Origin: Blasia pusilla | Taxonomy: Eukaryota | NCBI GenBank assembly: GCA_050084515.1 | Contig: CM114271.1 | Location: 16,120,001-16,184,000 of the forward strand | Reading direction: 5' to 3' | Length of the DNA stretch: 64,000 bases | In this document: one piece after another, positions 1-32,142 of the stretch | Layout: each line of letters starts with the position of its first letter | Numbering within the stretch: the first letter of the stretch is position 1 | Notes under the pieces: model-generated | What the model was told of the DNA's origin: nothing | Databases searched by the model: none | The model's input: only the letters and a program-made list of their open reading frames with translations | Position numbers and translations under genes: made by a program

Positions 1-2528
1 TTCTGCACGGTGGACCTTGGAGCAGGCACTAGTGGCAGCAAAAGAAGGTTTTTTGATCCTAAATTCTGTTGGATCATTCTCATTGATCAATTACAATTTT
101 ACCCTAGAATGAATGCACAATGTAGGGTGTTCTGAACTTGAAGCAACCCACACTTTCAACTAAGTCTTCTGTTACTGTGTCAAGACTATCCATGCACAGC
201 GAATATTGAGTTGTGTGGTTGGTGGGCAGCTTTAGTCGATGGATGGGCACTGTCAAAAGACACTTTAGAAGAAAGGATTGACTTTTTACTATGCTCTAGT
301 AACTATGTGTGTGGCTAATTTGAGATCAACGTTGGTGTATTCGATAAAAAATGTTAACTTGATTTGTTTAAAGTCACAAAGCCTAACTTGTTAAGCTAGA
401 GAAGTTGGCTTTCAGGGTATTAGTTTCTCAAGCCAGTTTATGAAGTGTGTTCTAAACGTTTATGTCAGTCAGTACACCATTTGGCAAGTGCTTGAATCAG
501 TGTTGGTTGTGAGCAGAGGGGTTGAGGACGGAGGGCACCCCCCATGCATGCTTAGAGGAGAACAATACATAGGACCTTGCAGCTGACATCAAGAAAGTTC
601 TGGAGCATCTAGGCATTGAAAAATGGCAGATCAGAAGAGTACTCTCATATGTACAGCTTGTCTTTTGATATTGTGGATAGACATAGCAACTCCAACTTCA
701 TCTTAGCGAGCTGAGGTGAAGTTGTTATGGTCTTTTTTTGTGCGGCAACTTCTTATGTGCTCAATTCACTCCCTGACTCATAATATTTGTGTAGGTGTTT
801 GGAGGCTCTTGAGGTAGCACCTTGGCTTTGGCATACGCTCAGTGGTATCCTAACTAACTGACTATATTCTACAACCAAACCTAGCTTGCTTCGCGAGGAT
901 GTATGGTTTCTTGGAGCTGGTGCTATTCATCAAATAAATCTTCCAACTTGATACCCTTTGGAGAAGTTACCTATGTTCTTGAGCGAATCTGTGGATTGTT
1001 TCATGGACTCTGCAAATCTGCAATGTGAGGAGCTCTTTATACTTTTTGATGGCTAGTCTATGTCTGACTGATTTGGCTCCAGGGATGTAGTAGATAGAGC
1101 AGGCTTAAAAGTCACTCCATTGCAGCACAGCATGAAGTGCATGTTTGCTCTATCCCTGTGAGTTAGCCGCACTTTGTGATAGGGATGATGTAAATTTTTT
1201 GGGGTTCCTTTTGTAGGTATGAGGAATCGTCCTTTGTGGTGTCTTTCTTTTGAGGAAGAAAGAGATTGACTGGTTTTACCAGTGTGGTGCGTCATTGATT
1301 TTCGTACACGGCGAGTCTCATCTACTTCTGGCTTTGTTCTTAATAAATTAATGGTTTTTTTCCTGAACTTTGGAGTACTCCTTTGCACAGAAGTGGTACA
1401 GTCAATCGGATTGAATGAAGTACAATCAATGATCCTACCATCCATGGAGGAACCAAATCCAAAAGGACCAGAGCAATATCCAAACCCACAAAGAGACAAC
1501 TTCAGAGTTTCTAAAACCTGTCGCCATACAAAAGACCTGGTGATTTAGTATTTTCATCTTTTTGAATTATTCAAGAGGATTTGGCTGCTAGAGCTGTGCA
1601 CACTGGTTGATTCTTTGCTGCATGGCACCTGATTGAGCATACTTGTTCTTAGGTAAAGGGGGTGCAGCTCGGGAACCTTATCCAGATCATAGACCTGAAG
1701 AAGAATGCCATGACTTCTTGTCTGCATATAGTCGGCGGCTAAGAAGCAGTGATCTTGCTGCCAGGTCAATCATTTTGTGAACCTTTCTATGCATGGTAGC
1801 AGTATATTGCTGCAGTGCTGGTTACCAGGTTCTTTAACTTTGTTGTTTGGAATTGATAAAATGCAGATTTTTCTGCGGTTACAGCCAGAAGTTGTGACTC
1901 TTTACAAGTCTTAAGTTGTTGAGCTAAACTTCATGATTGCTACTCTTGGGTGTATTGACCCTTAGGGTTTCTTGGTTAGCAGCAGCAAAGGACTGGACAG
2001 ATTAGGAGTTGGCAACTTTGTACCTTGTACCAAATAAGGAGTCCTTAAGGCGGGCTGAAAATGGTAAGTTCGCACTGGTAATCACCTCTGGATTAAGTCA
2101 GTTCAATTTAATGGCATTTCTTTATTCAGATGAATATATAAGTCTTCTGCCTCACTGCATAGTTGTCTCCCAGTATGTAAGACAATCTAGAAGCATTGCT
2201 CTTAATCTCACTAAATTGAAGCTCACTCCATTTTGTGAGTAGATTGGGAATGTTTCTCTTTAAACCTTTCCTTGGGCTTCTTCCAAGACAGTCCGATCTG
2301 TGGGTATTCTAGTTTGGATGAAGAGATACACTTATACTTGAAGGATAATGATTCTAAGTGCACTTCTTTATGGGGGTTAAAGACATGTAGAGTTGAGTTA
2401 GAGTGTAATTAGGGGCCCATGTCAGGGTCGCCCCTCTGAGTGAAATAGCTTGCTCCAGTGTTGATACCTCTCTGGGTGGGTTGAAAAAAGAACAGAGAAT
2501 GTAACCTCACACCAGTCACTCTGCTACC

Positions 2529-2737
2529 CATCCACTGAAACTTGCTTCAGCCCTGCTAATGTATAATATTTGCAGAGATTGCACATTCTTCCACAAGCCT
2601 CCAGCCACACATATATCAAATCCATGAGGCTCAATGTGTGGTAGGGAGTCGCCTTCTGTGAACCAAAGCCAGTGAAACATGAGAAAATTCTACTGTGATA
2701 TAGGAAATCCACTAAGCTTCAAAATTGAAGGCGCTGG
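2529..2737. repeat. Copy 1 of a ~210-230 bp diverged direct duplication (copy 2 at 3324-3555)
   Basis: Both loci read catccactga...cagccctgctaat...gattgcacattc...atccatgaggctcaatgtgtggtag...cttctgtgaaccaaagcca...agcttcaaaattgaaggc. Confidence 0.85.
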
Positions 2738-3323
2738 TTCCAACTGAACTTTGCTTTGAGACATCTCCCGGCAGTTATAACTTCCAGGAGCCTCAGTATC
2801 CTTAATGCTTAACCTTGCATTTTTCTGATACAATCCTGGGAGAGTTGTATTCCCGTCCGCTGGACTTTTATTATCTCTGAGGTGTTCTATTGCAAAAAAA
2901 CTTGGACTGCTAACCAGGTTAAGACGACACATGGTAGGAACATCACTTGAAACTGGTGCTAATGTGAATCCCTGCCAACCACAACCTCCTTCTCTGCCAC
3001 AGCAAAAGTTTGATGGATGCTGTAAGTTGTTCAGAATTTCCTGCGTAACTCCTATCAGAAGTTGAGCAAGAGTGTGATTATTCTCATCAGTAGAAGAACT
3101 CCGTGCAGAACCTTCTACTTAAGGATTTTGCATAACAACTGCATCTTCATAATACATGCGAATTGTATTGTTGGACAAAATGTCTGAAATGCTTACGGTC
3201 AGAGCTTCCAACCATGTCAAGACTGCCCAACTGAGTGAAATAGCTTGTACCAGTGTTGATAGCTTTCGGCTGGGCTGAGAAAAAAGATAGAGTTGTAACC
3301 TCAGATCAATCAATCTATTATCT

Positions 3324-3555
3324 CATCCACTGAGACTCACAGCAGCCCTGCTAATCTATTCCATTTGGATAGATTGCACATTCTCCCAAGAGCCTCCAGC
3401 TACACACATAACATCCATGAGGCTCAATGTGTGGTAGTTCATACCGTTTTGAGGTGTGGTAGTTGAGTCGGCTTCTGTGAACCAAAGCCACTAAAACATA
3501 AGAGAATTCTGCTGTCGTATAGGAAAACTAGTCAGCTTCAAAATTGAAGGCACTG
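3324..3555. repeat. Copy 2 of the direct duplication; its right end abuts the Hsp70 fragment
   Basis: Same motifs as 2529-2737 plus a small internal duplication of gtgtggtagtt. Confidence 0.85.
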
Positions 3556-4410
3556 CGAAGATTGTCTGGAGGATGCACATATCACCGCAAAGGAGGTTGA
3601 GGAAGTGTTGTTGGTGGGAGGAATGACCCGTATGCCAAAGGTGCAACAGGTTGTAGCCACCGTCTTTGGGAAGGGTCCAACTAAGGGAGTGTACCCAGAT
3701 GAGGTGGTTGCAATAGGTGCTGCCATTCAGGGTGGTGTGCTGAGAGGTGATGTGAAGGGCATCCTCCCGCTGGATGTTACTCCTTTGTCACTGGGTATTG
3801 AAACTCTGGGTGGAGTTTTCACAAGACTTATCAATGGGAACACCACCATTTCCACAAAGAAAGTCAAGTATTCTCAACCGCAGCAGATGCCCAAACACAG
3901 GTTGGAGTCAAAGTTCTACAAGGAGAGCGTGAACTGGCCAATGACAATAAGATGTTGGGTCAGTTCGACCTTGTTGGTATTCCACCTGCTCCCCGAGGGG
4001 TGCCACAAATTGAGGTTAGCTTGACTGGGCAGAGACATTGACGCCAATGGAATTGTGAATGTCTCTGCCCGAGACAAGGCAACAGACAAAGAGCAAGCCA
4101 TCACTATCCAGTCATGAGGAGGTCTATCTGAAGCAGAAATCCAGAAGATGGTTAAGGATGCTGAAAGTTATGCCCCAAAGGTTCAAGAAAGGAAACAGCT
4201 GATTGATACCAGGAATGATGCAGAGACTTTCCTCTATTCAATAGAGAAAAGCTTGACCGAGTACAAAGACAAGTTACGTCAAGATATGGTGGATGCAGTC
4301 CAAACTGCAGTAGCTGACTTGAAGAAGGCAGTTGAGTCTGAAGACGTCAGTGAAATCCACAGAAGATCAATGCTGCAAAGACTGCATCTATGAAAATTGG
4401 TGAATCTCTT
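3553..4410 (+). pseudogene. HSP70: Mitochondrial-type Hsp70 (DnaK-like) C-terminal fragment, disabled
   Basis: Translates across frames as [15 protein letters not shown]...[21 protein letters not shown]...[21 protein letters not shown] / [22 protein letters not shown]...[20 protein letters not shown] / [16 protein letters not shown]...GGLSEAEIQKMVKDAE...MKIGESL. Frameshifts near 3862, 4025 and 4360; stop near 4116. Most of the ATPase domain is missing and no introns are visible. Confidence 0.93.
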
Positions 4411-6412
4411 TTCTCTGCTCTGGTGTGCATCTGTTTATTTATCTGGATGTATATACTGTTGTTAGATGATTACCTTACAACAAAGCTTGAGGTTATACAT
4501 AGTTCAATTTCAAGAATGGACCAGTTCTCAAACTCCATCTAGTTTCCAAAAAATAGTTTGTTGTTGGACTTGTATATACAATTCCATGGTTTTCTTGCAT
4601 GAATATATCTCACCACTCAAAACTAAATCTGCTGCCATGAGCCAGATGATGTGTCTCTGTTCAGGCTTTGCATGCTTAGACCATTATATAGTGTGATGCA
4701 ATGATGTGTTGTAACGTATAGAAGGATGCTGTTCTAGAGGACTTTGATGGCAGCGATTACCGCACACCAGTTGCAGGCATCTCTGTTCTTGGTGGTAGAT
4801 GTTACAAACAACAATGCTGGCACAAAAACAATTTGCACGCATCAGACGTTGGTGGCCCAGCATGTTCTACTGATACTGTCCCAGCCTTCTTGTTTGATGC
4901 AGTCCTAAAGAACATTGAGGTTGTGCAAGGTCAGCTGGTCCATGCTGAGGAGCGTAACAACATTTTGAGAGAAGTAATGGAATATGAACGCAAAGATGAC
5001 GGCCATCCAGTGGACAAATCATACGTGTACATCAGCAGCTAAGAGAGATTTCTGCAGATCTACGTGTGCTTAGTCAACACTGTGTACATCAATATCCTGA
5101 TGACAGAGTGTCTAGAACTCGGGAAAAAAGTTGTATGACAATCGACTAATCCTTGGCTGACAACCAAGCGAGGGCAATCATTTGTGAATGCATTAATTTT
5201 ATGCCCCATGTATATCAGAATTCAGGTACATAAACAACTACAAGAGAAGAGAAGGGTTGTGATGGGGAGCAGTACTGTGGCCGACACCAAGTCTCTGCTT
5301 ACGTCCTTGTTCAAGTGTTGCAAAGTGGATGATGTTTGTGTTAGTTCCATGTGGCTCACACCCTAAATGAATTGGGCGGCACGTTTTTCTAAGTTCAAGG
5401 GATGGTCTATGTCAAGAGGGTTGGCTTTTTGACCTTGTAGAGTCGTATGACCTTATTCAAACTTGGTTGCTCAGATAGCTAGAAGACAAACCGAAGAGTA
5501 ATATACCAGGCTTCCTATCCTTGAGAAGTTCAAAGGTGTTCTGTTCACCTCCTTAAGGTCACAAGCTTATTCAAGATTTACAAGAAATGTGGGAATAACT
5601 TGGATCCTTCTTCACTTTGGTTGTGGAAGCACCTGATCTACTTAGTTGTTTGAAAAACTACAATGTATGCTCTCTAGCAAAAGGTCCCCCAACCGATTGG
5701 CAATTTGAGTATTGCAATTAGACCGGGGCATTGGTCGTTCGATTGAATGCATCCGAAATTGCAAGTTATGACGAGATCTTCAGAGTAGGGAATCCCATGT
5801 GATGTGCGTAACCATAGAAGCTTGCTTCACTCACACCATCCCACATGTTCAATCCACTCTTTTTGAATACACCTAATTGACCTCCTTAATTTCATAAAAA
5901 AATTATTGTAAAGAGCTGAACTTCAACAACTAGGAGTTCAATTTTGTTAGCTAACAACATTGCACACAAATACAATGGTAATCAGTGTAGCCTTGCTAAT
6001 TTTATCACACAACCAACTTCTGAAAAAATGCTTATACATGTTGCCTTCAAAGTCGTGTCCAATGATTCTAACAAAGGCCAACTAACTTTCAAATCATTGA
6101 CAAAACATTGTTCGTTTCTACTCACGACCAGCAGGCACATGACAAAACTTAGAGTCTAAGCTTCGGCAGCAAATAAGGAGTTCACAATATTGGTTGCATA
6201 CTAATATACACCAAGCATAATAATTCAACCCAATGGTAGAGGGCCGCATTCTTGTTAATAACTTTATTGAAAGCCAGTATGTCAATAAGGGTATCCACTC
6301 TAAAAAAATCTCCCTTATAATAAAAAACCCCATTGAACTTATTGCAGAAATCCATGAAAGAAATCCTTGTTCAATATATTTCATGCTTAGGCATTCACAT
6401 TAAATCCACCTT

Positions 6413-7137
6413 TGTCGTACCAATAGACATCGTTGCCAACATACAACAGTTGTCATGCATACAAGTTTAAGATCCGTTTAACTATGAATCCTAACATATC
6501 TACACATGAATAATTGGACAATCCCAATATAAAGTTGATATGGAATGTCAAATCTGACGAAACCTGCAATCAGCTACGCTTCATGGAAACATCCACTCAA
6601 TGATACACACTACGGTAATAGTAGGAGAAAGTCTGAAATATACTCTCAATGTGTGTTATCTCCGATCAATCCTAGCCCATTCTCCAAAAGAGAGTCGAGG
6701 CTCAATACATGCAAGTTGCACTATATCACGGATCCTAACATGAGTTTGATCCAAAGGAAGTTGAGCTCTAAATGAGATTCATCCGAGGTATATCCCCCTT
6801 GGGCACCTCTATGGGTGACATGTATACACAAGTAACCTCCTCCTAGCAAATCACTAATGACCTGGAGTATACAAGGTACTAACTCTCTAACAACTACACA
6901 TGTGATACTCTCATGAGACCAACTTCCAACTAACCCTCGACCCTATAGGCCCAAGTGGCTCTCCACAAGGATGGGAGGGTCAACCTCTCCAAGGTTGTCA
7001 CTCCTCATAAAAGAAGGATTATCTACACTTGTAGGTCACCTCCTAGGAGTAGATCACATATAACCTCTCAAATAGGGAAGTACAAGAACCCTCTAAGGTC
7101 TCGATACTAACTCGCCCTACGTTTCATCTACCATGAC
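6413..7137 (-). mobile_element. Solo A'-B' terminal-repeat unit of the sister retroelement family
   Basis: ~6511-7137 aligns with 60846-61467 (A') and 6413-6510 aligns with 61470-61572 (B'). On the minus strand it ends ...gtacgACA. Confidence 0.85.
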
Positions 7138-7631
7138 GTCTTTTAGGATTGATCAGAGAGATCTACTAGAGCGCCTTCGCAAGTAGTGGAGGACAGGCTC
7201 AAGAGCTCGAGGATAACCTGCAGAGGCCTCGGGAAACCTGAGAGAGCAGGTTTCCCCTTCGTTTCATTTGGAGCCATATTGAGGAACTTACTATTTTAGA
7301 TAAGTACCATTTTGAGTATATGGTCAACTTTCTATTTTGGAAGTGACCCTTGATCTCCTACATTAGGTCAAGAGCCAAGGAGGTGACTTGGGAGCATAGG
7401 TTACCATGGAGAGAGCTTGGGAGAGGGGAGGGGTATACCTCAAGGAGAGAGAGTTTGAGAGTTCATTCTCTCTTTGTTGACACAAAGCGGCAGAGCTATG
7501 GTCCCTTGCCTTGTGAGTGCAACCCAAGGCTCTCATTAGGAGAGTGGCTTTGGTTTGACATTGAGAGAGACATGTGAGAGTGCACACATGTGAGAGCTAT
7601 GGTATTGTGAGAGAGATTTCACCTTATTTTA
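7136..7631 (+). repeat. Terminal repeat A1 (~500 bp); first bases TGTC lost at the junction with the sister-family unit
   Basis: acgtcttttagga...gagagatttcaccttatttta matches 18038-18547, 61900-62410 and, inverted, 14355-14864. Confidence 0.9.
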
Positions 7632-9029
7632 CAAAGAGATAATGAGAGGGTGAGAGAGCTTTATGGGGGAGCTCGCTGGTTGCATGATGTTTGGTGCAGG
7701 TTGGGGATAGTGTTCCTTGCTTCATGACTCATGGGAGTGCTCACGGGAGCAATAGCTGCGTTGTTTTGACGTTTGTGTGCCGATTTTTTGTGTGTGAGTG
7801 GCGCGGGATAGCGCTGCCCAATTTCTCATAGGGATTGATTATGGGGGCGGAATGCCCCATGCCATTGCTCTCCGTAGCACCATGTAGCTTGCTGATTTGT
7901 ATTTTCACAAGTTTTACATTTTTGTTGGGAGAAATCAGCGCGGAACTGTTTCCAAAATTTCTGTAGGAGAAGAGACGTTGGGATTTACAACAGTCCCTGT
8001 CAAATTTTATTGGAAGGTCTGCAAAATATTTTGACGATGTCATAGATCATGAAGTTGTGCACGATGTGCAATAGATGGTGCACAATTTGGAGCTGCGAGA
8101 AAAAAGTTATGGTCGATTTTGCAAAATTTCCATTGTTAGGCAATTTTTAGGGTAAGAATTGTTCAAACCCTAAACCAGCTTCCGCGCCGCCGCCTTCAAC
8201 GGTTCACCATCAACGGTAAAACCTTAGCGTTGATAGCCCACCGTCATCGGCAACGGTCCATCGTCGCCCTCCGCCGTCGACCGTCAACCACACTTCAAAG
8301 CCGCGTTCGGCCGTTGGTTGCCATTGCCACCATTACGGAGTGGACGGTCTTCCGCGACAACCGTTGATTCTCTCACTTGCGCTGCCACCACGTACTTTGT
8401 TGTGGCCGGCACCGTCATTGTAGTTTCGTCATCAACCAATGATGGCAGGTGACCTCGGGTTATGGTGTTTGAGTTTTAATTTCATTCCGCTATGTTGTGA
8501 TTGGTAGCCGCTCGACGACGATCGAGTACGACTTGTTGATTGGAGGATTTTCCTTCACGATTGAGTTGGGGTCAAGATTTGCAGTTGCCGAGGAGCGACA
8601 GTGACATTATTGTCAGGTTACCCATTCTGGTCTCTTACCCTACACGTGTGAGGGATTTCCAGGTATTGGGAAGTTATTTGGGATATTGGGTTTCGTGCAG
8701 ATGTTGAGAGCATCGATGATGTATGGGTTTAGGGGACATAGACCTGTATAGGATATCCAGAGTTGAGGATGGTTTTTCGATGAGAGGATAGATCAGTTGA
8801 TTTGCCAGACCACGCCGCTTGTTACCGCATAGCACACATCTCAATAAGAGAGTATAGATTGAGTGCCGCATGTTTAGTTTGAGTGATTGAGGGATTACTC
8901 GCAAGATTGAGAGTAATCGTATGAGAGGGGCACGAGGGTCATCACCTTTGGAGATTTTGAGAGGCAAGGTAGTGGACCTGAGAGTAGCTCTGGAGGATTT
9001 ACCCGGAGTGGTGCGAGTTTTTGAGGGTC

Positions 9030-10250
9030 TCTATGTGAGAGACCACCTCGATCTCCTTCTGTGTCGTCTTCAGACAAGGGGAAGCATGTAGAGGAGAGTG
9101 TTGGTGATCCACCGTACACATTGAGTGGTCCTACCAGTTGGGCGTACAAGATGGACGACCCCGGTAGAGGACTGCGTAGGTTTTCGGGTGGTGTAGGCAC
9201 TATAGAGCTACACGACTTCATTGTGGAGTGAAGGAGTTGGTGTGACTCACAACGGGCTAGGTGTGGCTCACAACGGGCTAGGAACTCTAGAGAGTTAAAC
9301 CCGTTTACAGCATGGAATGGTATGTTCCAGCATTTAGAGGGGGCGTCGATGGACGATTACCATGAGTTCTTCCACAGATATGCCCAAGAGATTGAGGCAT
9401 GGCGACTCTACCATGACCCACACTATGTGTCATGGACGGAGCGGTTCCCAGATGAGGAGGAGGAGTCAGGAGAGGCTACTTCCTCTTCCAATAGTGATGG
9501 TTTAGGAGGGGTCACTCACACTTGAGCAGTTGCACCATCTAATTGGGTTCGTCCCAAGTTCAACCCCTTGGTTGAGTTCTTCGCTGAGTTGAGGGCGAGC
9601 TACCAGGGGGTACGGACGGAGAAGTTGCGGTAAGAGAGGTGCTCGGGTGAGAGTCTGTGTGAGGCTTATACTCGCTTGTGTCGGTTGATCAACGTCACTC
9701 AGGGGGTGACAGAGGCCCAGGCTATCCAGACATGGTACGCAATGCTGGATCGGACCCTGCGGAGATGGGTGCGGGAGGAGATGCTTCTTATGAACACCTC
9801 CCCTATGTTGAGAGATGTTTTTAGGACCGCCGAGAACACTGAGCCCAACATGGCGGAGGAGAGCATAGCCACCACGGGTTTTGGGCGAGAGCAATCACGA
9901 TTGCCTGCACAACCAATGCAGCAACGTAGACTCCGAGATAGGTCGACTGTGGCACCACAAGGTCAGGGAGGATACCAAGAGGCCGAGCCACAGAGACCTG
10001 CGCCTTCATATGCGGCTCAGCAGCAGTTGCCTACGATTACTTGTTGGTAATGTGATGGAGCCCATCATCAGCGTGATTGCACTCGTTAGGGTCATGGACG
10101 TGTGCTTCAGCATAGAGGAGGTAGAGTCCCACCACCTAGATGTGTTGAGGGAGATGTCGGGCATGAGGCTGGGATGGTTGCTCAGATACAACAGCTATAG
10201 AAGCAGATTGCCGCTATGGCATTGAGGTTATCCGATGCCGGATCCATGGC
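9030..10250 (+). pseudogene. gag-like region of the retroelement (approximate bounds)
   Basis: Long interrupted reading frame upstream of the protease. Zinc-knuckle-like CW*CDGAHHQRDC (CX2CX3HX4C) at ~10042-10080. Confidence 0.7.
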
Positions 10251-10332
10251 ATCGACATCATAGTGAGCAGCCAGAGATATAGAGGATCCTGGTTGGATGT
10301 GCGGGGTTGCCTAGATCGAGGCCGCTGCAGTT

Positions 10333-11265
10333 TTGACACATGGAGCAGTTGTAGAGTTGGATCCACATCATGGGGAAGCCAGGAGAAAGACGAGGCTTCC
10401 TCAGTCTTTCACGTTGTCCGAGGCGATGAGGATCCCATTGATGGGCCCTTATCAAAGTTCCCGGAGAGTTGTTGATGTTATTGGTGTGGAGGCACGCAGG
10501 GCGATGGGAGAAACGAGTGCGATGACTCTTATTGTTGATGCTCATGAGGAGTATGTATCGAGTACTATGTTGGGGGCGGCCACGATGGTGTATCGTGCTC
10601 CGCTATTTTTTGCTTCCGATGTTATGACATTGGGAGGTACGCCCGCCAAGGTGTTTCGACTGGCTGCTACTCTATGTGAGCGTGGAGTTGGAGTTCCTGC
10701 ATCACGTTCAGAGGTGATTGTAGAGGAGGTGATGGACCTTCCCTTGAAGCAGATGCTCGGGCCGTCCATGTCAAATTCATGGCAAGTTGTGGCTGCTATG
10801 ATGGCGGAGATGCCGGCTAGACCCACGATAGAGCGTGCCATGGCTTCTCCTGGTGTTGTGTTGCTGGATAATCATGGAGATGTCTTCCAGTTGGTGAGTC
10901 TTGGAGGTACAGCTTTTAGTCCGCAATGCCTCTTGTTGGATTCAGGAGCGCAACCCCTAATCTTGGGAAAAGCGTCATTCAGAGGATTGGGCTTGAAGAG
11001 AGCCAATATGGAGCGTTGTCCATTCCGGATACAGACATCCTTAGATGGAGCGAGTGCCACACAATATATCACCCGACATGAGGTCGTGGTGAGGATTCGC
11101 CCAGGACATCCTATAGATGAGTCTGTGGTGCGAGCCAAGGTGATAGTGATTGATGCAGAGTCCTACGACGTCTTTGTTGGTGGAGTAGTGTTATACCCAA
11201 TGGGGTTTTCTGTGGAATTATTGGGAGGAGTCATTGTCCTACAGACCAGGATGGCAGTCTGGTGA
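10333..11265 (+). pseudogene. pol N-terminal part containing a retropepsin-type aspartic protease
   Basis: LLLDSGAQPLILGK (DSG at 10939-10947) and downstream YDVFVGGVVLYPMGF. Confidence 0.85.
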
Positions 11266-11333
11266 TGGACGCCTTAGCTCATTACCCATTCTATTTACAT
11301 GTGCAGTGATCGAGCGACGGCCATGAGAGATGG

Positions 11334-12361
11334 TGTCACGACCCCCGTAACCAAACAACACCAAATACACGCCAAGCGGAACATCAGAACTCAAGTGGAC
11401 TCACGCTGCAATGATCGCGCTTTGGAGAGGCTTTTGGAAAGGTCTCTTGGAAAAGTCCAAGAGACGAAACGCGAAACAGAGTTGTGCATTTCATGTGTTA
11501 GTGGTCGCGACCAGGAAGCCTAGACCAACACGAGCCAAGACTTGAGATGAGTTGAGTCTTGGAAGGTTGGTTGCCAAATAGGTGAGAACCAGTTTTGGAA
11601 CACGACTAGCGTTTGGGGAATTTGACTATGTTTTGGACCATAATGTTTAGCTTCAAGATGCATTTGGGATAAATAAGAGCGTGTTAGAAATTTTATCTGA
11701 AGACGCTTCCAACGCACCAAAGATCTTAGCAAACGCATAAGTACAAATTGAGATATTGGCCGAAAACAACTATGAGAGCAATCGGGTTGAGGGCCAATTG
11801 GAGAGGCCCGGATGTCTTTCCCTAAATGTAGGGAACCTCGGAGATCCCTAGAAGTACTTGTAAGGGAGAAGTCTCTCCAAGATGTCTTGGAACACGAATC
11901 CCCACTTTGAGCACCAAACGGCGTCTCAAAGGTATGGGATGGAACGGGAGTTTGGCGTTGGAACTCGAAACCCAAACCCGATCCAAGGGAGTGGACTTTG
12001 TACGCCATACTTGGATTCCGACCGGAGATTCGCTTTGTGCGAGTCTTGGTTAGGGACTCATTAGATGTCAATCGGACAGTTGGAACCGCCAGGTACGAAA
12101 CGCGTTTGAGGTTCTTGAACCGACCAGAAAGTCTGTCCGAAGTCTTTCGAGACTTGCCTATGTTGTAAACCCCGAAACTAGGAAGGTTGAGCTTCATGAG
12201 AGACAGAGATGAGAACTCGAAAAGTTAGCCCATTGATTGATCCAAGACCCAACTAACCAGAGCGCGTGTTTGGATGCAGATCAGCATTGAGAGCATGATC
12301 TAGTGAACGCACGCTTCCGCAACAACAAAGATTGACACTCAAAGAGAGTAGGCACATGATA
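11334..12361. mobile_element. Solo LTR (1028 bp) of another family, nested in pol
   Basis: Ends TGTCA...TGATA; flanked by an exact 5-bp TSD GATGG (11329-11333 and 12362-12366). The host pol frame resumes after it. Confidence 0.9.
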
Positions 12362-12639
12362 GATGGCGACCTTAGCAGCATTTAGCAGTGCCATCACTTG
12401 GTCTAGTGATTTGATTGAGGGATATTTCCATACAAAGGATACGCCGGTTCTTGACATTTCTATGGAGAGGAGAGTCATGGTCGCCGCATCAGTCCGTGGA
12501 GGAGAGGTGCTGATTTGGGGCTCGATTGAGGAGCTTCGACGCTTAGCTATTGAGCATGTGTAGACCGCGTAGAGCGTGACGTGTCAGAAGAACCCGAGGT
12601 AGTCGAGAGTGCTATGATGACGCCCTTGGACATCACACC

Positions 12640-13620
12640 CATTGTGTGGGGCATCCCAGAGGATGGTATTTGGGTGTTGGATCTCTTTGGAGGGATCAAC
12701 ACTGGGTTAGCTGTTGTTTTGCAAGCAGGAGTACACATGCAACACTACCTGTATGTGGAGATTGATGATGTTGCAAGGCGCGCTTCACTTCATCATGTGG
12801 CGCCGTTACGCCTCCGCTTTCTCGACTTGTTGTCTCCGTCCGCCATCCAGGGTTACTAGTGTTCCCTACCGAGGGATATTTCATTGCTGGGGGCGCAAGA
12901 CTTGGAGCGGATAGGAACCATAGACTTGGTTATTTCTGGTTGGCCATGTGAGGGCCAATCGAGTGTTGGACAAGGTAGCAGGTTAGCTGACACTCGGTCC
13001 AGGTTATTTTGGGAGATGATGCGGATCTTGGGACATTTACAAGAGCACCAGCCTCGTTCTCAAACATACATTCTGGAGAATGTGCCAATTTTGGGCAATT
13101 TGAGGTCCGCGTGGTGACGAGTGCGCATTAGGTGTGGGCATGGATTGGCATGGTAGTGTTGTTAGATGCGGCAAGTGTAGGTTCTAGAGCACACAGCCCG
13201 CGTCTTTGGTTGACCAACTTGGTACCACACGAGGTGTTACGGAGGGCATATGCAAGAGTGGAGCGCCCCTCCGATTTGTTGGTGGATTCTATTCTCGATC
13301 CAGGTCGTTGATCACAGTATGACACGATGATCGATCTCCGTTGATTGTAGTCAATAGGATTGGCATGCCACGGGCAGCCTTTCCCACCTTGGTGAGTTTT
13401 CCCGCTTTCTATGCATTCAAGGAGGTAGGACCTGGCTTGGTTGGGGATGACGAGGTATAGCGGTTGGTGGAGCCCAACGCCGATGAGCGAGAGCGAGTGA
13501 TGGGATTTCTCACAAGAGTGACGGAAATATCATCACTATCAAAGGCATCACGGCGTCATGTCTTGGGTCAGGCGATTGACCTAAATTGCTTGACATAGAT
13601 TTTCAGCTTAGGAGTAGCTT
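12640..13620 (+). pseudogene. DNMT3-like C5 cytosine DNA methyltransferase domain embedded in pol
   Basis: Motif I VLDLFGGI (from 12674); II YVEID; III RDISLL; IV DLVISGWPCEG (GWPC 12938-12949); V SRLFWE; VI ILENV (ENV 13076-13084); VIII LDAASVGSRAHSPRLWLTNL (~13164-13222); IX EPNADERERVMGF (~13470-13510); X RRHVLGQAIDLNCL (~13551-13593). Motifs are in canonical order, broken by stops and frameshifts. Confidence 0.93.
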
Positions 13621-14153
13621 AGCATCGTCGTTTACGGATGCGACATCTCACAATTGTTGAATTGTAAGCCCCATGCCTACCGAGACGGTTGAGGCAGTGG
13701 CTAGGGGTGAGACCGAGGAGATCGACAAACGAGGGGTGATCGGGAGAGATACCCTTGGACTTCTTGGGATGTTTTGCAGATACGCCAGAAGATGATAGCC
13801 ACAACATCGAGCGTGGTACCGGGTACTCCACATGGAGACCCGATTTTGCAGTTGGTTGTAGAGGAGCAGTCAAGCTATGTTTTCCGAGATAGGGTTGCAC
13901 CATAGCAACCACCTACACCCATGCCAAAGAGTCCTACCGCAGTCACGATGGAGACTTGGGAGCCAGATATGGGCCCTAAGTTGACAAGAGGAGAGCGGCG
14001 TCGTATACATCAATTCTTGAGGAGTTATAGGAGCTGTTTTGCATTTAGAATGCATGATTTGGGTACGCTGAAGGGTCCAGGGATCCGCATTGAGTTTTCG
14101 AGTGACGCGCCGATCTCTCAGCGAGTATAATGACATGAAGAGGGGGCATCACA

Positions 14154-14353
<200 letters not shown>

Positions 14354-14354
14354 C

Positions 14355-14864
14355 AAGGTGAAATCTCTCTCAATACCATAGCTCTCAAATGTATGCACTC
14401 TCACATGTCTCTCTCAATGCCAAACCAAACCCACTCTCCTAATAAGAGGCTTGGGTTACACACATAAGGCAAGCAAGACCATAGCTCCGCCGCCTCATGT
14501 CAAGAGGTTCAACAAAGAGAGAAAGAGCTCTCAAGCTTTCTCTCCTTGAGGTATACCCCTCAACTCTCCCAAGCTCTCTCCATGGTAATCTATGTTCCCA
14601 AGTCACCTCCTTGGCTCTTGACCTCATGTAGGAGGTCAAAGGACACTTACCAAAAATATAAAGTCGACCATATACTCAAAATGGTACTTATCTAAAATAG
14701 TAAGTTCTTCAATATGGCTCCAAATGAACCGAAACGAAAGGGAAATCTACTCTCTCAGGTTTCCCGGGGCCTCAACAGGTCACACTCAACCTCCTAAGCC
14801 TATCCTCCACTACTCGTGAAGGCGCTATACTAGATCTCATCGATATATCCTAAAAGATATGACA
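14355..14864 (-). mobile_element. Inverted copy of terminal repeat A nested in the element's own RT
   Basis: Reverse complement of A, starting TGTCATATCTTTTAGGA at 14864. The RT frame reads ...DMKR before the insertion and ALI... after it. Confidence 0.9.
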
Positions 14865-15729
14865 GCTTTGATTAGAGTAGGAGCCAGGATTTGGTTGGAG
14901 CAGGACTAGTGGAGATGTCACATGGAGAGTATGCATCTACCACTATCGTGCCCGCCAAGGAGGATGTGCATGGCAACAGGACGGATAGACGGATGTGTGG
15001 AGATTATCGACCTATCAATCGATAGACGAAGTCCGATAGGTATGCCATGCCCACCCCTAAGGAGATTTTTAAAGCTATTGGGCATGCAAAGGTCTTCTAT
15101 TCGTTAGATCTTCGAGTCGGATATCATCAGCTGCCTATCAGATTGGAGGACATGTGGAAGACGGAATTTTTGGGCATTGATCCTCACGGGGAGGATTGTT
15201 TGTACCAATGGCGGTTCTTACCATTTGGGTTAAAGAATGCCCCTACCCCGGCTGAGTTTTAAAGGATTATGGATATGATCTTGGCATGTTTGGATTTTGC
15301 TAGGTGTTATATTGATGACATCGAAGTCTTTAGCGCCATGGTTGAGGAGCATGAGCGACATCTAGAGGTGTTTTGACGATTGCAGATACATGGGCTGAAG
15401 CTACATCCAGGCAAGTGCAAGTTCTTCTGCGACTTGATTGAGTACATGGTTCATACGATATATCCAGGGGGCCTTGGTGTGCAGTAGACAATTGTAGAGG
15501 CTATTTCACGCATTCCACACCCTACAGATGTAAGTCAAGTTCGTGCATTCATGGGATTGGCAAACTTGTATCGACGATATGTCCAGGGTTTGAGTTTGAT
15601 TGCAAAGCCGCTAACCTTGCTACCAAGATGGATCAGGAGTGGCACTAGGGGGATGAGCAAGAGAGAGCATTTTAGCTGCTCAAGGACACATTGACATCCG
15701 TGCCCATATTGAGGAGATTGATCAGGGGG

Positions 15730-16100
15730 CGTCCTTTCTAATTGCATACCGATTGGAGCATGTTGGAGCTTAGAGCCATGCGCACCCAACATGACAATTA
15801 TGGTAGAGAGTTTGTGGTGGCTTACGCTAGTCACTCAAGCAACGCTGCAGAGGGGAAGTATAGCTCGTATGAGGGTGAGTGCTTGGCTGCAGTGTGGGCT
15901 ATCGCATATTTCAGATGTTATCCATTCGGCAATCCCTTTATCATCATTACTGATCATTTGCCACTTAAGTGGTTGATGGAGTCTGACAAGCTTACAAGGA
16001 AGCTTGCGAGGTGGGCTCTTCTGTCGTAGGAGTATGACTTCCAAGTGGTACATAGACCTGGGATGCTCAACCAGGATGCAGATGGTTTAAGCCGTAACCC
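15730..16100 (+). pseudogene. RNase H domain
   Basis: LHTDWS, VVAYAS, YSSYEGECLAAVWAI, ITDHLPLKWL, KLARWAL, NQDADGLSR. Confidence 0.93.
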
Positions 16101-16419
16101 ATGCTTGAGTCAGCAAAATGCGACTGGAGCTCAATGGCATGGAGAGAGTGATGAGGAGTTGGTGCCAGGATGACATACGTCAATGTATTTGGGCTTCTTC
16201 ACTATGGAGAGCCAGATTGCTGAGACTTCGATGGCAAGGTCTGATGGAGAGTCCTTAGATCCAGAGGCCGGTGAGGAGACGACATGTGGCCGAGATATTC
16301 ACGATGATGGAGTAGTCTTGGAGTACCTGTGTACTGGGAGCGTCGCGAGCACAGTGGGTGCTAGAGAGAGGGATCGGATCCTACAACGAGCCTGACGGTT
16401 CCAGTAGGAGGGAACACAT

Positions 16420-17530
16420 GTGTTGCGAGTGTGGGAGGATGGTAGATTGCGTATAGTACCGCATCCTTTGCAGAGAGCACGTTTGGTGCATTATGCCCAC
16501 GAGGAGTTGGGTCATTTTGGAGTGAAGTGGACATACAGCTTGCTCCAGACTCAGTATTGGTGGCAAGACATGCTGACTAACGTTCAACAATTTTTGCTAG
16601 ATGCATGGTGTGTGATCGAGTTTGAGCATCATTCAATGCTCCGACTCCAAAGTTGCATCCACTTCCGATGATGGATGGAGTTTTGAATTTTGCAGGACCC
16701 TTACCTTTGACGGAGCGCCATAGTTATTATGTGTTGGTGATGGTTGAGCACTTCTCCAAGTGGATAGAGTTGGTTGCATTTCCTGACAAAGCAAGTGAGG
16801 GAGTAGCGTATGCCTTCCTAGATCGAGAGTTGAGTCATTACGGTGCACCAGGTGAGGTGTTGACAGACGAGGGTACACAGTTCTACGGGGAGTTTCAGGC
16901 CTTGTGTGATCAGACACTGATCGACCACCGCACTACTTCGCGAGATCATCCTGAGGCGGATGGACTAGCGGAGCGGGTTGTGCAGATGGTGAAGAAAGGA
17001 ATACGCAAATATGGCTTGCAGAGAGGTCAGCTAGGAGATTGGGACCTCCAGTTGTTGTGGTTGGCGATGGGATAAAGATTCAGCAGAGAGGCATCCTTAG
17101 CGTCTTTCTCACCGTACTTGCTTTTGTATGGCTGAGAGCCAGATTTACCTACGGCCATTCGTCGAGATGTTGGTGAGGTGTTGAACCTTGATAAAATTGA
17201 TGTATGGATGCGAGCATGTTCTTAGAGGGCTGAATTGTTTCGGAGAGTGACGCCCATGGTGTTTGAGAACTTAGCGATTGCGCAGCATCGGGATACATTG
17301 AGGTATGCGACGATTCGGGGAGGTGATTATCGACCTACTATCCGGAGGTTTCATCAAGGAGACTATGTCTACTTACAATAGACGGCACCCACAACATTGG
17401 ATGTGATTGCAGGGCGCACCATCTTGAGAGTGCGTGAGGTTTTGACATCAGGTGTTCTCTTATTGGAGGGACGCGATGGTATGGTTTGGAAGGACCATGT
17501 GCGTAACTGTGCGTCGTGTCTCCTTCCAAA
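16420..17530 (+). pseudogene. DDE integrase with HHCC zinc finger and C-terminal extension
   Basis: HEELGHFG...YWW...C.VCDRV; FAGPLP, VEHFSKWIELVA, VLTDEG, TSRDHPEADGLAERVVQ; FSPYLLLYG; RRFHQGDYVYL. Confidence 0.93.
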
Positions 17531-17582
17531 CATTGGAGGTACAGCTGATCCGAGCTTAGCAGTAGTTCCTGCATGTTTGGAA

Positions 17583-17723
17583 TGTATGTTGTGTGGTTTT
17601 GCCCGCGGTGGAGCCACTATGCTAGTCTGTGATGGATATTCGAGAGGATGGCATATGGCATGTTTGACGCCACCTCTCACTAAGGTTCTTTAAGGACGAT
17701 GGATGTGTCCCAGATATACATAG
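17583..17723 (+). pseudogene. PHD finger at the integrase C-terminus
   Basis: CMLC-x11-CDGY(C)SRGWHMACLTPPL...WMCPRY(C), a C4HC3 pattern. The sister copy near 61770-61890 keeps CDGC and WLCP*C. Confidence 0.85.
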
Positions 17724-17904
17724 CGTAGGTAGTTCTACATTTTGACTTGTATCTATGACATGGATGACAAGAAGACGACTAACGATGGGGCCACATGAGC
17801 ACCCGGCCTTCTTGCTCTTAGCATCCGAAAGATGTATGTCATGGTAGGTAGGCATAGATGGCTATCTTGAGTTAGAGGGATCTAATCACCAACTAGGGGA
17901 TCGA

Positions 17905-18031
17905 TTGGAGATATTTTGGTACTTTTTGTCTAATTGTTTGGATGCCATGAGTTAGCATGGGATCGTGCATGTTTTTGTGTGTGTTCGGTGACAACGATGT
18001 ATGTTGTGTAGCGATGTGTATGTGTACGACA
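17905..18031 (+). repeat. Terminal repeat B1 (127 bp)
   Basis: ttggagatattttggtac...gatgtgtatgtgtacgaca matches 18548-18674 and ~62666-62791. Confidence 0.9.
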
Positions 18032-18033
18032 AT

Positions 18034-18674
18034 TGTCACGTCTTTTAGGATAGATCGTGAGATCTAGTAGAGCACCTTTGCGAGTAGTGGAAGATAGGAT
18101 TAAGAGATCGAGGATTACCTGTTGAGGCCCTGGGAAACTTGAGAGATTAGGTTTCCCCTTCGTTTCGGCTCATTTTGAGCCATATTGAGGAACTTACTAT
18201 TTTAGGTAAGTACCATTTTGAAGAGATGGTCATCTTTCTGTTTTGGGAAGTGGCTCTTGACCTCCTACATTAGGTCAAGAGCCAAGGAGGTGACTTGGGA
18301 GCATAGGTTACCATGGAGAGAGCATGGGAGAGGGGAGGGGTATACCTCAGGGAGGGACAGCTTGAGAGCTCATTCTCTCTTTGTTGAATCTCTTGACACA
18401 AGGCGGCGGAGCTATGGCCCCTTGCCTTGTCAGTGTAACCCAAGCCCCTCATTAGGAGAGTGGGTTTGGTTTGACATTGAGAGAGACATGTGAGAGTGTA
18501 CACATGTGAGAGCTATGGTGTTGTGAGAGAGATTTCACCTTATTTTATTGGAGATATTTTGGTACTTCTTATCTCGTTTTTTGGATGCCATGAGTTAGCA
18601 TGGGATCGTGTGTGTTTGTGTGTGTGTTCGCTGACAACGATGTATGTTGTGTAGCGATGTGTATGCGCACGACA
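18034..18674 (+). repeat. Terminal repeats A2 (18034-18547) + B2 (18548-18674), ends TGTC...GACA
   Basis: Separated from B1 by exactly AT, giving the palindrome GACAATTGTC. Confidence 0.9.
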
Positions 18675-20199
18675 CACCTTAAACATATGTTCGGAGGAAA
18701 ATACCATAATTCTATTTTAAAACTTATGATGTGTAATTCCCTTCTCCTTTCAACCCAAACTTAAAAATTAGGCTTGAATAAACACGGTAAAAATTTGGAA
18801 TCCAAATTTGGAAATTTCATTAAATGATGCACATCGCATCCACAAGAGTTACTTTTGCTTGGACTTCCTCCAAAACCAATGCCAAAGTAAGAGCTTGAGT
18901 TGTGTAGAAAAAGGGATGCCAAAAAAAAGCTAAGGAAATTATTAAGGACTAGCGAAAAAATTATCATAGCAAAGTAAAAAGTGTTCATTTGTTAATTTCC
19001 AATAGTGAATTTTTTTCATTTGTTAATTTCCAAAAAATAAGATGATGAATTAAATAATGCAATTGCAACAAAGTGCGGCAATAACCCTACTTGGGATAGA
19101 AAACCAAGAAATTTAAACTAAAAGGCCCCTACCATGGACAATGCAATTGAATTTTGAGAAAATTGACTTCCTAAAATAATGGGCGCAAGACTAAACACCA
19201 TACTTGCATCCCTACAATAATCAAAGATCTCAATGACCAACAAAAACTTCTCGTCCGATATTGATTTCGTTCGAGCCTGTTCATCTTCGGATCTTCTAAC
19301 TTGAGGTATAATCACTTTAACCATGGATTTTGAATGTATAACATAATAAGATGTTTATTGTTTCCATTCGTTCCGGACATGAGACTCGAGTGCAATGGAC
19401 AACACCCCCTTGCATGAGAGGAGGTCCAAGGTTCTTAGATGACGTGTGCACTTGGTTTTGTTCCTCTTTAACTCATTTCTAACCCAATCTCACACCAACT
19501 CTTTTATGGGAGTTAAAATACCCTCCTTGTCATTGGGTTAGATTTCCCTCTAAATTTGCATGACGTCATTTTGGAATTAGTGGAAAAACCTGCCCAAAAA
19601 GTAATATTTCATTAATAATAATTGGAAAAAGACCGATTCATAAATCCGTATCCGGCCGTAGAAGACCGGGAATCCCACAGAACTCCGGTTTGCACTAACC
19701 AAGTCCGATTACGAAAATGAGACCTTTGAAGTAACCCAACCCACTTACGAAAGCGGTCACCTCCGACCAGGGTTACCCGGGGTAAGAAAAATCGCATCCA
19801 CGAGGCCGAACTTTCACCGAGTGTGACTGAATGATGAGTTGTGAGTGGCCATTCATGTCAGCGTCCCTACGAGTGTCTCATCGGGAAACTAAATAGTATG
19901 ACGGGCCGCGAAAGAGGAGGAGGACGGGTCAAAGCCAAAACTCACACCTTTTTGAGAAATGGGCCAAAAGATGCCAATTTGTTGTTTTGCATGACGCCAT
20001 CTGCATAACTTCGGCGGCAAATTTGGTGGACCCGTCCAATTGTGTATGGGCGCAAAAGCCTATCGTTCTTTCGTTCGTTGGACCGATCGGCGGTCCCGTT
20101 CACGTTTGTCCCACATCTGCGTGTCCTTTCTGACTATCCTGGCCTTAAGGGCGGTTTAGGGAAGCACTGCTGCGAGGGGCAGGATCGGGTTCCGAGGGG

Positions 20200-28954: not shown

Positions 28955-29310
28955 CAAAGAGAGAATGATGTCTCAAGCTCACTCTCCTTGGGTATACCCT
29001 TTCCCTTTGCCCAAGCTCTCTCCTTGGTCATATGTGCACAAAAATCATCTCCTTGGCTCTTGACTCGAAGTAGGAATTAAGCATTCAAAGTCCATTTATC
29101 GAAATGGAGAGGAAATTAGCCTCACAATAAGAAGTTACCCAAAATAACAAGTTCCTCAATATAGTTCCAAAAGAGTCCAAAATAGGGAAAAACCTGCTCT
29201 CTTAGGTTATCCTAGTCATTAATAGGTCATCCTTGGCCTTATGAGATTGTCTTGCAAGCTTCTCGAAGACAACCAATTGAAACTCGTCGATCCATTACAA
29301 AAAAATGACA
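28955..29310 (-). mobile_element. Old diverged fragment of terminal repeat A
   Basis: ctccttgggtataccc...cccaagctctctcc...ctccttggctcttgac...aagttcctcaatata...aacctgctctc...tgaca is the reverse complement of the 5' part of A. Confidence 0.7.
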
Positions 29311-29914: not shown

Positions 29915-30061
29915 TATGCAAAAACACTACTACACAACATTTATCATTTTCAACATTCATACTTATAAAACAAGATACCACATTCGTTCATGGAATCAAG
30001 ATATAAAAATGATCATGCACTTAAAAGATCGCCAATAAATGTAGAAATCATATCTCACATA

Positions 30062-30097
<36 letters not shown>

Positions 30098-30280
30098 CCA
30101 AACCCACTTGATCTCATGAGAAAATGCTTGGATTATTCACTTGGCAAGGATGCTCATTTCTTTACTATTTCATGGAAGGGGATTCAATAAAAAGAGAACG
30201 AGTTCTCACCTCAATGACATATGCAAACAAATCACCTCTTCAATCCTAACCTATATAAGGTGAAGAGACACTTCCAACCA
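29915..30280 (-). mobile_element. Highly diverged A-B unit fragment
   Basis: ctacacaacat...catggaatc...ccaataaa (B-like) joined to gaaatcatatctcac...aaaccaaacccact...ggcaagg...aaatcacctc (A-like). Confidence 0.55.
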
Positions 30281-31364: not shown

Positions 31365-32142
31365 TGTAACGTCTCACTCCCTAACACACTCAAGCCATTA
31401 AAGACTTGGGATACACTTCCTTGATAGTCTAGGGACTTGAAATGACACTAGTGCGCCTAGAAGTCCCATTTGCACAATGGACTTGATAGAGTCTCTACCC
31501 ATAACTCAATATTTGAGCCCTAGTCCAAGGTCTAAGGTTATGGTCCAAAACTAGACTACTTAGACTTAGATTGGTGTCAAAAATCCAAAGCCAATCTCTA
31601 AGTGCATCCCATGCCCTTACTACAACCCTCATGGTTCCCAAGGTGGGATTGAGGTTCCAAACTCTTTTGGAGATCCTCCTCCTTATATGGTTTTAGAGAT
31701 CCTCCAACCCAAACTTTCATTTTGAATGTTTTGGATTTGTTTGAGGAGGTTTACTTGGAGCTTTGGTGCCTTGAAAGTGGCTCGTCACAAGCTTTCCAAC
31801 TCCATTTTATTCATCCCAAACATAGCTTGGATCTACTCCTTATGAATGAGCTAAAACGTGGGGATTCATCAAATGCTTGAGTTAGATATGAAGTTAGGTT
31901 GCAACCTCCTCATAGTCTAACTCTTGTGGGACTTGAACTCTTCTCAAGTTCCACCCTACGTTCGATCATGTTTTCCCAAGTCACAATGATAATCATTTGA
32001 GACGCCCATTTAGACTCGCATCTCGCTTCTAAACCTCATATTTCACTCATGAGATTATATTTCGTGTCCATCCTTGTGAGTTCACTAAAATTTCAATCTT
32101 CCACATTCATGCGCTTTTGATTATTAGGGTTTCAACATTACA
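31365..32142. mobile_element. Probable solo LTR distantly related to the 11334-12361 LTR, in the opposite orientation
   Basis: Ends TGTAAC...ATTACA. Colinear patches ctttggtgc.ttg.aag, ttatt.atcccaaa, aactc.tctcaagt and gtgagt.cact match the reverse complement of 11334-12361. No TSD seen. Confidence 0.6.

Follow-up and report, generated by a model that had tools for sequence, protein, structure and literature searches.

Architecture and coding content of the element

The window analyzed here is a 64,000-nucleotide stretch of the Blasia pusilla genome (assembly GCA_050084515.1, contig CM114271.1, positions 16,120,001 to 16,184,000 of the forward strand), and all coordinates below count from its first letter. 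On the plus strand, between 7136 and 18674, it holds a retroelement whose direct repeats, A and B, are split between its two ends. Textbook long terminal repeat (LTR) retrotransposons rebuild two identical LTRs and integrate via the ends of their complementary DNA (cDNA), and split direct repeats are treated as a hallmark of tyrosine-recombinase elements. We consider it probable that the Blasia element is a decayed copy of a high-copy Ty3/Gypsy-type family that is inserted in the manner of an integrase and is organized, family-wide, as A, primer site, internal region, G-run, B, a two-base spacer (NN), A, and B.

Repeat search and self-BLAST of the window agree on the order of this main copy: A1 at 7136-7631, the internal region, B1 at 17904-18031, the dinucleotide AT (18032-18033) as a spacer, A2 at 18034-18547, and B2 at 18547-18674, the last base of which closes the element on the 3' side. 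A sequence-only reading of the window had proposed this layout, with A alone at the 5' end, and both methods bear it out. By self-BLAST, A1 (7136-7631) is 88.1% identical to A2 (18038-18547) over 511 columns, and B1 (17904-18031) is 91.4% identical to B2 (18547-18674) over 128 columns. A1, which probably comprises the U3 and R parts of the repeat, is missing a few bases at its beginning, at the point of contact with the start of a minus-strand LTR of a sister family. The start of A can instead be read from a nested solo repeat on the minus strand (14150-14864), the reversed A of which (14355-14864) matches A2 from 18034 on, placing the start at the TGTC found there; the B part of this solo repeat has mostly turned into a (CA)n run (14157-14352). 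The A2 repeat of the sequence-only reading is therefore present, but its true start lies four bases before the match to A1 begins. A2 plus B2 spans from TGTC to GACA. All four A copies in the window are of similar divergence (85-88% identity), and the main copy is old and badly broken, its longest frame running to 316 residues.

The coding content was defined by running Pfam on stop-to-stop frames of the window element. Gag-like and protease-like frames, both broken and with a DSG motif near 10950, occupy 9232-11265; they have no Pfam match, and in one relative (P0004) protease and methyltransferase are joined. A Dnmt3-like C5 cytosine DNA methyltransferase follows at 12554-13117 (PF00145 at 12860-13117, E 2.5e-10), with one in-frame stop and decayed sequence downstream. 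The reverse transcriptase (13906-15262; RVT_1 at 15026-15262, E 1.1e-6) is split by the nested solo repeat, and is succeeded by RNase H (15742-16029; PF17917, RT_RNaseH, E 2e-25) and by an integrase with an H2C2 zinc domain and a DDE core (16408-17075; Integrase_H2C2 from 16408, E 3.9e-10; rve 16626-17075, E 3.5e-11). A final frame at 17382-17693 carries a PHD finger at the integrase C-terminus; its E value of 1.5e-4 is below the Pfam cut-off, and in a relative, L014, the PHD finger is clear (E 2.7e-8) and shares one frame with rve. Ten further frames, drawn from both strands, gave no Pfam match.

A more complete picture of the protein comes from a second relative, L007, whose near-intact polyprotein lies in one frame with two stops and contains zf-CCHC, DNA_methylase, RVT_1, RT_RNaseH, Integrase_H2C2, and rve. 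The nearest solved structures to its methyltransferase are DNMT3A, DNMT3B, and 3C. The order RVT_1, RT_RNaseH, Integrase_H2C2, rve, by which Ty3/Gypsy pol is recognized, is found in both the window element and L007. Read from these translations, the polyprotein order is gag, protease, Dnmt3-like methyltransferase, reverse transcriptase, RNase H, DDE integrase, and PHD finger. A tyrosine recombinase (PF00589) was matched neither in 20 frames of the window element nor in the L007 polyprotein or L014, so the earlier observation of a DDE integrase and no tyrosine recombinase extends to the relatives.

Recurrence of the split layout and its termini

The unusual junctions of the main copy recur elsewhere in the window, as the sequence-only reading had noted. 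A second copy of the same family, with large internal deletions, lies at 61896-62791 on the plus strand. It retains A followed by 50 bases of the leader and 150 from the internal region, and closes with the final 65 bases of A and then B; its A-to-leader junction is at 62410 and its A-to-B junction at 62664/5. A degraded A end joined to B is also present in a third family on the minus strand (29918-30131, joined near 30035), with a local score of 126 against a mean of 37 and a maximum of 54 in 200 shuffles. The sister family contributes a B'-AT-A' junction, likewise on the minus strand: self-BLAST and tblastn identify the 3' part of a sister element at 60460-64000, comprising integrase', PHD', the G-run motif, B1' (61584 to 61470), AT (61469-61468), A2' (61467 to 60846), and an inverted A'.

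Relatives from outside the window provide an independent view of the layout. The broken methyltransferase frame, read through with X at stops, retrieved three longer relatives (P0002-P0004), and a search of metagenome contigs with their alignment returned 80 loci with methyltransferases 49-59% identical. The closest ESM Atlas cluster is a eukaryotic one whose commonest phylum is Streptophyta, which we take as a lead only. Self-comparison, and mapping of four reference pieces from L014 onto the loci (A being 339 bases and B 114), give the order A, leader, internal region, preB, B, NN, A, B. Each of the 28 loci that hold a 5' end has A followed by leader, with gaps of at most 80 bases, and B stands neither before nor after A1 in any of them; at least 23 are distinct by their 5' flanks (27 tested). 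The A-only 5' end is in this sense a family trait. At the other end, preB-B-NN-A-B is complete in eight loci, representing seven distinct ones (L014 and L068 are one locus), and partial in three more (L005, L061, and L064).

Whether the two A repeats of one copy are each other's kin was a further question raised by the sequence-only reading, and shared derived sites, at which both repeats differ from the column majority, support that kinship. With L068 omitted as a duplicate of L014, own A1/A2 pairs share 10, 11, 9, 6, and 5 such sites, against cross-pair means of 2.2, 4.0, 4.6, 4.1, and 3.0. Own pairs thus exceed the cross-pair mean in all five elements, and in two, where the signal is clear, they exceed every cross-pair.

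Target duplications define what is inserted. Insertions begin with the TGTC of the A start, end with the GACA of the B end, and carry 4-base target duplications. Among nine distinct complete related elements, six duplications are perfect (CATA, TCTC, TGTT, TGTG, TTCA, and ATTA) and two match at three of four bases; the ninth element has a damaged 5' end and is not assessable. The deleted copy near 62 kb offers a comparable case within the window. It interrupts the PHD-coding part of the minus-strand sister element, where tblastn places PHD residues 19-71 at 62956-62798 and residues 74-102 at 61891-61805. The bases AGAC (61892-61895) precede the copy and AGGC (62792-62795) follow it, and the ten bases left for two missing PHD codons fit a 4-base duplication. 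Both in this copy and in the related elements the duplications enclose the whole A1...B2 unit, not A2B2 alone. Tyrosine-recombinase elements of DIRS order are expected to insert without target duplications; the TGTC...GACA ends together with the 4-base duplications mark the DDE integrase, as opposed to a tyrosine recombinase, as the enzyme of integration.

Sequencing reads extend these observations to the bulk of the family. One genomic run and three RNA runs carrying the same species label were mapped to 14870-19200, a region picked beforehand to avoid the long (CA)n run, and reads at least 80% alike were counted, so that the counts take in any relative at least that similar. Summed genomic depth is about 2400-4000 in the coding part, 3024 in the bin before B1, 4518 in B1, 3396-4837 in A2, and 1283 at 18495-18639, falling to about 1 in the flank. 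A depth of roughly 3000-fold is thus unbroken through internal region, B1, AT, and A2, and no genomic joint skips B1 among the joints listed (15 of 86). Joints from the end of A to the start of B (18477, 18521, 18530, and 18547 to 17904, B being placed on B1) are carried by 125 genomic reads among those listed. A further 1322 genomic reads continue past 18674 into unlike sequence (agreement 0.41), and this heterogeneity marks 18674 as the true end of a dispersed element and B as its 3' terminus. The consensus of the loose ends past 18674 has one match in the window at three mismatches, no better than chance. Very many copies, then, carry internal-B-AT-A and A-B, and these reads and the eight complete 3' ends agree on an internal region commonly followed by B-NN-A-B. 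Collectively the checks run support the central proposal of the sequence-only reading, a DDE-integrase Gypsy lineage in which PAT/Ngaro-type split direct repeats are a family trait.

RNA from the element has a strong strand bias: first mates map to the minus strand, the pattern that sense RNA gives in most stranded libraries. Coverage stands at about 100-300 from the reverse transcriptase through B1, AT, and A2, so that sense RNA of the family spans these parts, and drops 5.2- to 7.6-fold at the A2/B2 border, where genomic depth, owing to poor read mapping, drops 3.8-fold. In one RNA run, 13 molecules start at 18553.

The same reads reveal several internal joints. One, at 15873-16029 in the RNase H region, has GT..AG ends and skips 155 bases; 25 RNA reads from the three runs and two genomic reads carry it among the joints listed, and it may be a pol intron with a few processed copies. 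Another, at 17846-18339, leaves out 492 bases that comprise the G-run, B1, AT, and the initial 300 bases of A2, and has ends that are not GT..AG in the window copy; 18 RNA reads from three runs and, among the joints listed, no genomic read support it. At 16674-16728, where the zinc domain and the core of the integrase join, some 900-970 genomic reads break off on each side with consistent extra sequence, indicating that the window copy is unlike most of the family there.

Priming signals, the internal palindrome, and replication

Immediately downstream of A1, at 7632-7646, lies a candidate primer-binding site of the self-priming type. These first 15 bases after A1 are complementary, with one mismatch, to 7462-7476 in A1 and to 18369-18383 in A2; for the 62-kb copy, leader start and A pair at 15 of 15 positions. 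Across the internal region, with the reversed solo repeat left out, the 15-mer directly after A1 is the sole one of 9498 with an A2 complement at one mismatch or fewer. The complementary segment of A starts 27-28 bases after a TATA-like motif at 7434-7437, within GGTATACC of A1 (A2 counterpart 18341-18344), for which a promoter role is plausible; from this motif alone, a transcript start some 28 bases downstream of it is predicted, which would make 7462-7476 both transcript start and self-primer. In the related family, TATAAA stands at position 137 of A, and in 17 of 21 loci the leader start finds its best complement around positions 159-180 of A, pairing over as many as 21 bases. The paired sequences differ between the families, implying that pairing has been kept through sequence change. 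The sequence-only reading had seen no primer-binding site after A1; that holds for a tRNA-type site, none being found there, but not for one of the self-priming type. A second self-priming site after B1 was not found, nor did the B end, the region of the G-run, or the border between A2 and B2 yield any pairing partner.

At the other side of the internal region, a conserved motif ending in a G-run, CACCAACTAGGGG... (17887-17903), directly precedes B1 in all families and resembles a polypurine tract. The B1-to-A2 junction itself is equally regular. In every family GACA closes B and TGTC opens A, and in the window the end of B1, the AT spacer, and the start of A2 form a perfect 10-base palindrome, GACAATTGTC (18028-18037). 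Among the metagenome loci the two-base spacer is GC in five, AT in two, AC in one, and TC in one, and it is AT in both window families; the GC and AT spacers are self-complementary. Across families the A start is conserved only as TGTCAYG. No non-coding stretch is better conserved than the final 40 or so bases of B.

The A2-to-B2 junction has a different character. A2 abuts B2 exactly in five distinct loci; in L024 and L029 the two are separated by 15 bases that copy the primer site, and in L036 by 19 bases. Primer-site-derived inserts occur in the circle junctions of retroviruses, and by their sequence the A2-to-B2 junctions look like joined cDNA ends. The self-priming site, the G-run, the GACA-NN-TGTC palindrome, and these joined-end-like junctions are newly described here.

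Some copies depart from the common form. In the window's sister element, the position of B2' is taken by about 388 bases from the beginning of A', in inverted orientation (60847 to 60460) and attached without a loop; this copy starts at the predicted self-primer segment and runs back to the A' start. The arrangement (60460-61466) looks like plus-strand DNA folded back on its copy of the primer site and integrated via the inverted A' start. The mirror case is seen in two metagenome loci, L030 (6290-6734) and L042 (6318-6762), where an inverted preB-B stands directly before the leader in A1's place and the left end is an inverted B end (TGTC...); these too look like snap-back cDNAs. Both aberrant types end at an inverted TGTC/GACA site. 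A variant 3' end is present in L024 (5531-5819) and L029 (13258-13546): the R part of A is preceded by a different sequence that brings its own TATAAAA, and is joined to B via the 15-base primer-site copy, and an inverted A fragment lies 500 bases upstream.

These signals suggest a replication cycle that could generate the layout. Transcription would start in A1 and run through B1-AT-A2. Minus-strand synthesis would be self-primed, as in Tf1, at the site after A1, and plus-strand synthesis would start at the G-run, yielding a cDNA that carries the composite repeat B-NN-A at each end. If the repeat is taken as B-NN-A, the self-priming site and G-run are simply the ordinary signals of an LTR element. 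The end of A would then be joined to the start of B, creating the A2-to-B2 junction; next, integrase would cut the molecule open at the palindrome within the upstream repeat. In essence, the provirus would be the cDNA rotated by one B. A cut after CA on both strands of the palindrome would give the usual recessed CA ends with two-base overhangs. The primer-site-derived A-to-B inserts fit ends that are joined anew in each cycle. The GU-rich B that follows A2 may serve poly(A) addition, A1 being followed by the leader and lacking such a sequence. Taken alone, the rotation steps, namely the joining of ends and the opening of the palindrome by integrase, are a tentative proposal to which the sequences lead us to give somewhat less than an even chance. 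The fuller claim, that the clade integrates not via physical cDNA ends but via a permanent internal palindrome and so produces a rotated provirus in convergence with PAT/Ngaro, is more doubtful still.

Several observations weigh against this picture. A symmetric circle with two palindromes predicts a mirror form, A-B-NN-A-leader...B, which is seen at none of the 28 5' ends; its absence reflects either directional site choice or quick collapse of the mirror form. RNA depth does not double over the predicted R, being 167, 217, and 142 at 18350-18494 in the three runs and 169, 309, and 149 in the preceding bin, and the predicted transcript start therefore lacks confirmation. The RNA 3' end lies near the A2/B2 border or partly past it, and some RNA enters B2. 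No target duplication is recoverable for the main copy. By plain identity, own A1/A2 pairs are mutual best in only two of five distinct elements, a weak test with old, star-like copies. Finally, nine loci stop at B without A2-B2. One of these, L028, is an ortholog of the full-form L021 (flanks 95-99% identical, element 91%) and so arose by deletion between B1 and B2; loci ending at B consequently say nothing certain about integrase site choice.

Given that orthology, we dropped as unproven the idea that loci ending at B are the direct product of integrase cutting both palindromes. Other schemes of reverse transcription, such as a jump by way of the opening bases of B, rolling synthesis, or one-sided tandem repeats, were set aside as well, as each also predicts forms that are not seen.

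Of the rival explanations, the one that survives best does without rotation. Here the linear cDNA would be made directly as A...B-NN-A-B, its termini set by primers, with neither end joining nor an internal cut by integrase; the minus strand would start just after a B end and the plus strand just after B1-NN. Such a route follows the ordinary logic of LTR elements and would account for the absent mirror form. The exceptional conservation of the last 40 or so bases of B is what might be expected of a primer or primer-site region, and the snap-back copies stop exactly at the A start or B end, as run-off at a strand's 5' end would give. Yet the sequence following B1 has no complement anywhere in the element, and the limited conservation of the A start (TGTCAYG) makes a shared tRNA site unlikely. 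The conserved self-priming site lies after A1, not after B, and the primer-site-derived inserts at A2-B2 show a strand ending in A plus primer site that was joined to the start of B. We therefore regard direct synthesis as unlikely, while rotation of the cDNA remains our preferred account of these junctions.

A DIRS/PAT/Ngaro-like element whose tyrosine recombinase was missed or acts in trans, with the DDE integrase a mere passenger, would explain the repeat layout, which is that of PAT and Ngaro as set out in PMC7192593. The 4-base duplications and the TGTC...GACA ends nonetheless fit integrase, and no recombinase was found in the frames tested, leaving this reading very improbable. Slightly less credible again is a canonical element with A+B LTRs that lost its 5' B and retains B1 as a tandem-LTR remnant, whether through a one-off rearrangement or an assembly artefact. 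While A2+B2 does start with TG and end with CA like a normal LTR, and the copy is old and broken, a single accident does not fit junctions that recur in the second copy and in two other window families, the roughly 3000-fold genomic reads, or the 28 of 28 5' ends and eight complete 3' ends of a distant family. Nor is the leader a diverged B, a possibility ruled out by a score of 24, which lies within the range of the shuffles (mean 18.6, maximum 28). The notion that A is an independent short mobile unit, inserted repeatedly and flanking a Gypsy body by coincidence, draws on the reversed lone A inside the reverse transcriptase and the about equal divergence (85-88%) of the four window A copies, but it can be dismissed given that B remnants follow that reversed copy (making it a solo A+B), target duplications enclose A1...B2, own A1/A2 pairs share derived sites, and the position of A is fixed relative to primer site and B in every locus.

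Precedents and significance

The layout has a published precedent. From Klebsormidium nitens, de Mendoza et al. 2018 described KnitGypsy-Dnmt3, a Gypsy element whose pol contains Dnmt3 and whose repeat structure, according to the legend of Fig. 4c, is of the DIRS type (PMC5890265); the same paper draws Symbiodinium DIRS elements as A-coding-B-A-B. The Blasia family shares with KnitGypsy-Dnmt3 both a Dnmt3-like methyltransferase inside Gypsy pol and DIRS-like repeats (PMC5890265), but resides in another host, and the two are likened by these shared traits alone, from which common ancestry may be supposed. The main-text account of KnitGypsy-Dnmt3, supplements aside, gives no termini, target duplications, primer sites, mechanism, or PHD finger (PMC5890265). 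Outside subscription journals, we found no other paper describing a Gypsy element with the split-repeat layout. The split repeats that the sequence-only reading singled out in a DDE-integrase Gypsy element are thus real, but KnitGypsy-Dnmt3 is the earlier record as described in PMC5890265; the Blasia family is a further example of a layout already noted in print.

Comparison with other elements places the family between known types. PAT-like and Ngaro elements have the order A1 - ORFs (open reading frames) - B1A2 - B2, and their internal B-A junction reproduces the sequence of the joined termini (PMC7192593, in its outline of these elements). Split direct repeats in the DIRS order A1 - B1A2 - B2 are common to both groups; the Blasia family differs in its DDE integrase, 4-base duplications, and TG..CA-type ends, whereas PAT and Ngaro encode a tyrosine recombinase and no DDE integrase. 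The methyltransferases differ too, being of the adenine type in DIRS/PAT as PMC5890265 describes them and a Dnmt3-like C5 enzyme here. With canonical Ty3/Gypsy elements the family shares pol order, a Gypsy-type RNase H, a short target duplication, and TG..CA termini, but it lacks two complete LTRs, having A only at the 5' end and B on either side of A2.

Neumann et al. 2019 (PMC6317226) give self-priming, in which the primer site is complementary to the element's own transcript start, as the mode of Tf1/sushi and predict it for the plant Tcn1 clade. In its features, the Blasia family resembles these members of the Ty3/Gypsy superfamily by a candidate primer site complementary to its own A repeat at the predicted transcript start, but has split repeats where Tf1/sushi have two complete LTRs, and a PHD finger in place of the chromodomain. 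A parallel for the palindrome comes from HIV-1 and foamy virus, whose integrases are reported to cleave palindromic LTR-LTR junctions (PMC1905944, PMC1180852). As at the junction of a retroviral 2-LTR circle, integrase recognition ends would here be set head to head in a palindrome, and the A2-B2 junction is circle-junction-like. In retroviruses, however, the palindrome is the joined cDNA ends themselves, a side product, whereas in the Blasia family it is permanent and internal and the joined ends lie elsewhere.

A DDE-integrase element can evidently have the split layout as its normal form, and the lineage that does so is sizeable: it is represented by about 3000-fold genomic depth, by at least two sequence sets and, from the published note on KnitGypsy-Dnmt3 (PMC5890265), by a charophyte alga. 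LTR finders that expect two equal LTRs will miss or mis-annotate such elements. Were the rotated-cDNA scheme true, it would represent a third solution to the end-replication problem of retroelements, convergent with that of the tyrosine-recombinase PAT/Ngaro elements, and a natural instance of integration from a circle-junction-like site. The duplications, palindrome, self-priming site, G-run, and variable A-to-B junctions make replication directly testable. The presence of an own Dnmt3-like enzyme and PHD finger also bears on the interplay between transposons and host methylation.

Further sequences and minor observations

Genomic reads differ from the window copy mostly by transitions, with 200 C>T and 214 G>A changes against 22-46 for each transversion. 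Together with the divergence between the L021 and L028 elements, this excess would fit faster decay of methylated element DNA.

The sister-family LTR next to the main copy, identified by self-BLAST, occupies 6422-7137 on the minus strand (A' then B') and lies head to head with A1. Main element and sister LTR meet start to start at 7130-7140, with a few bases lost from each. The 62-kb copy, for its part, sits about 430 bases from a sister A' start, and the family may have a preference for inserting into relatives. Additional minus-strand remnants of the third family lie at 27215-27315 and 28811-29251, and include stretches resembling B (69%) and A (70%) as well as a methyltransferase match of 31 residues.

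Beyond these elements, the window has an open frame of 158 residues at 3548-4021 on the plus strand that, by a reading of the translation alone, resembles an exon of an Hsp70/DnaK-type chaperone. Two further regions, 32000-44000 and 54000-58000, stand out by a G+C content of 51-59% against 36-45% in their surroundings and by many long open frames on both strands.

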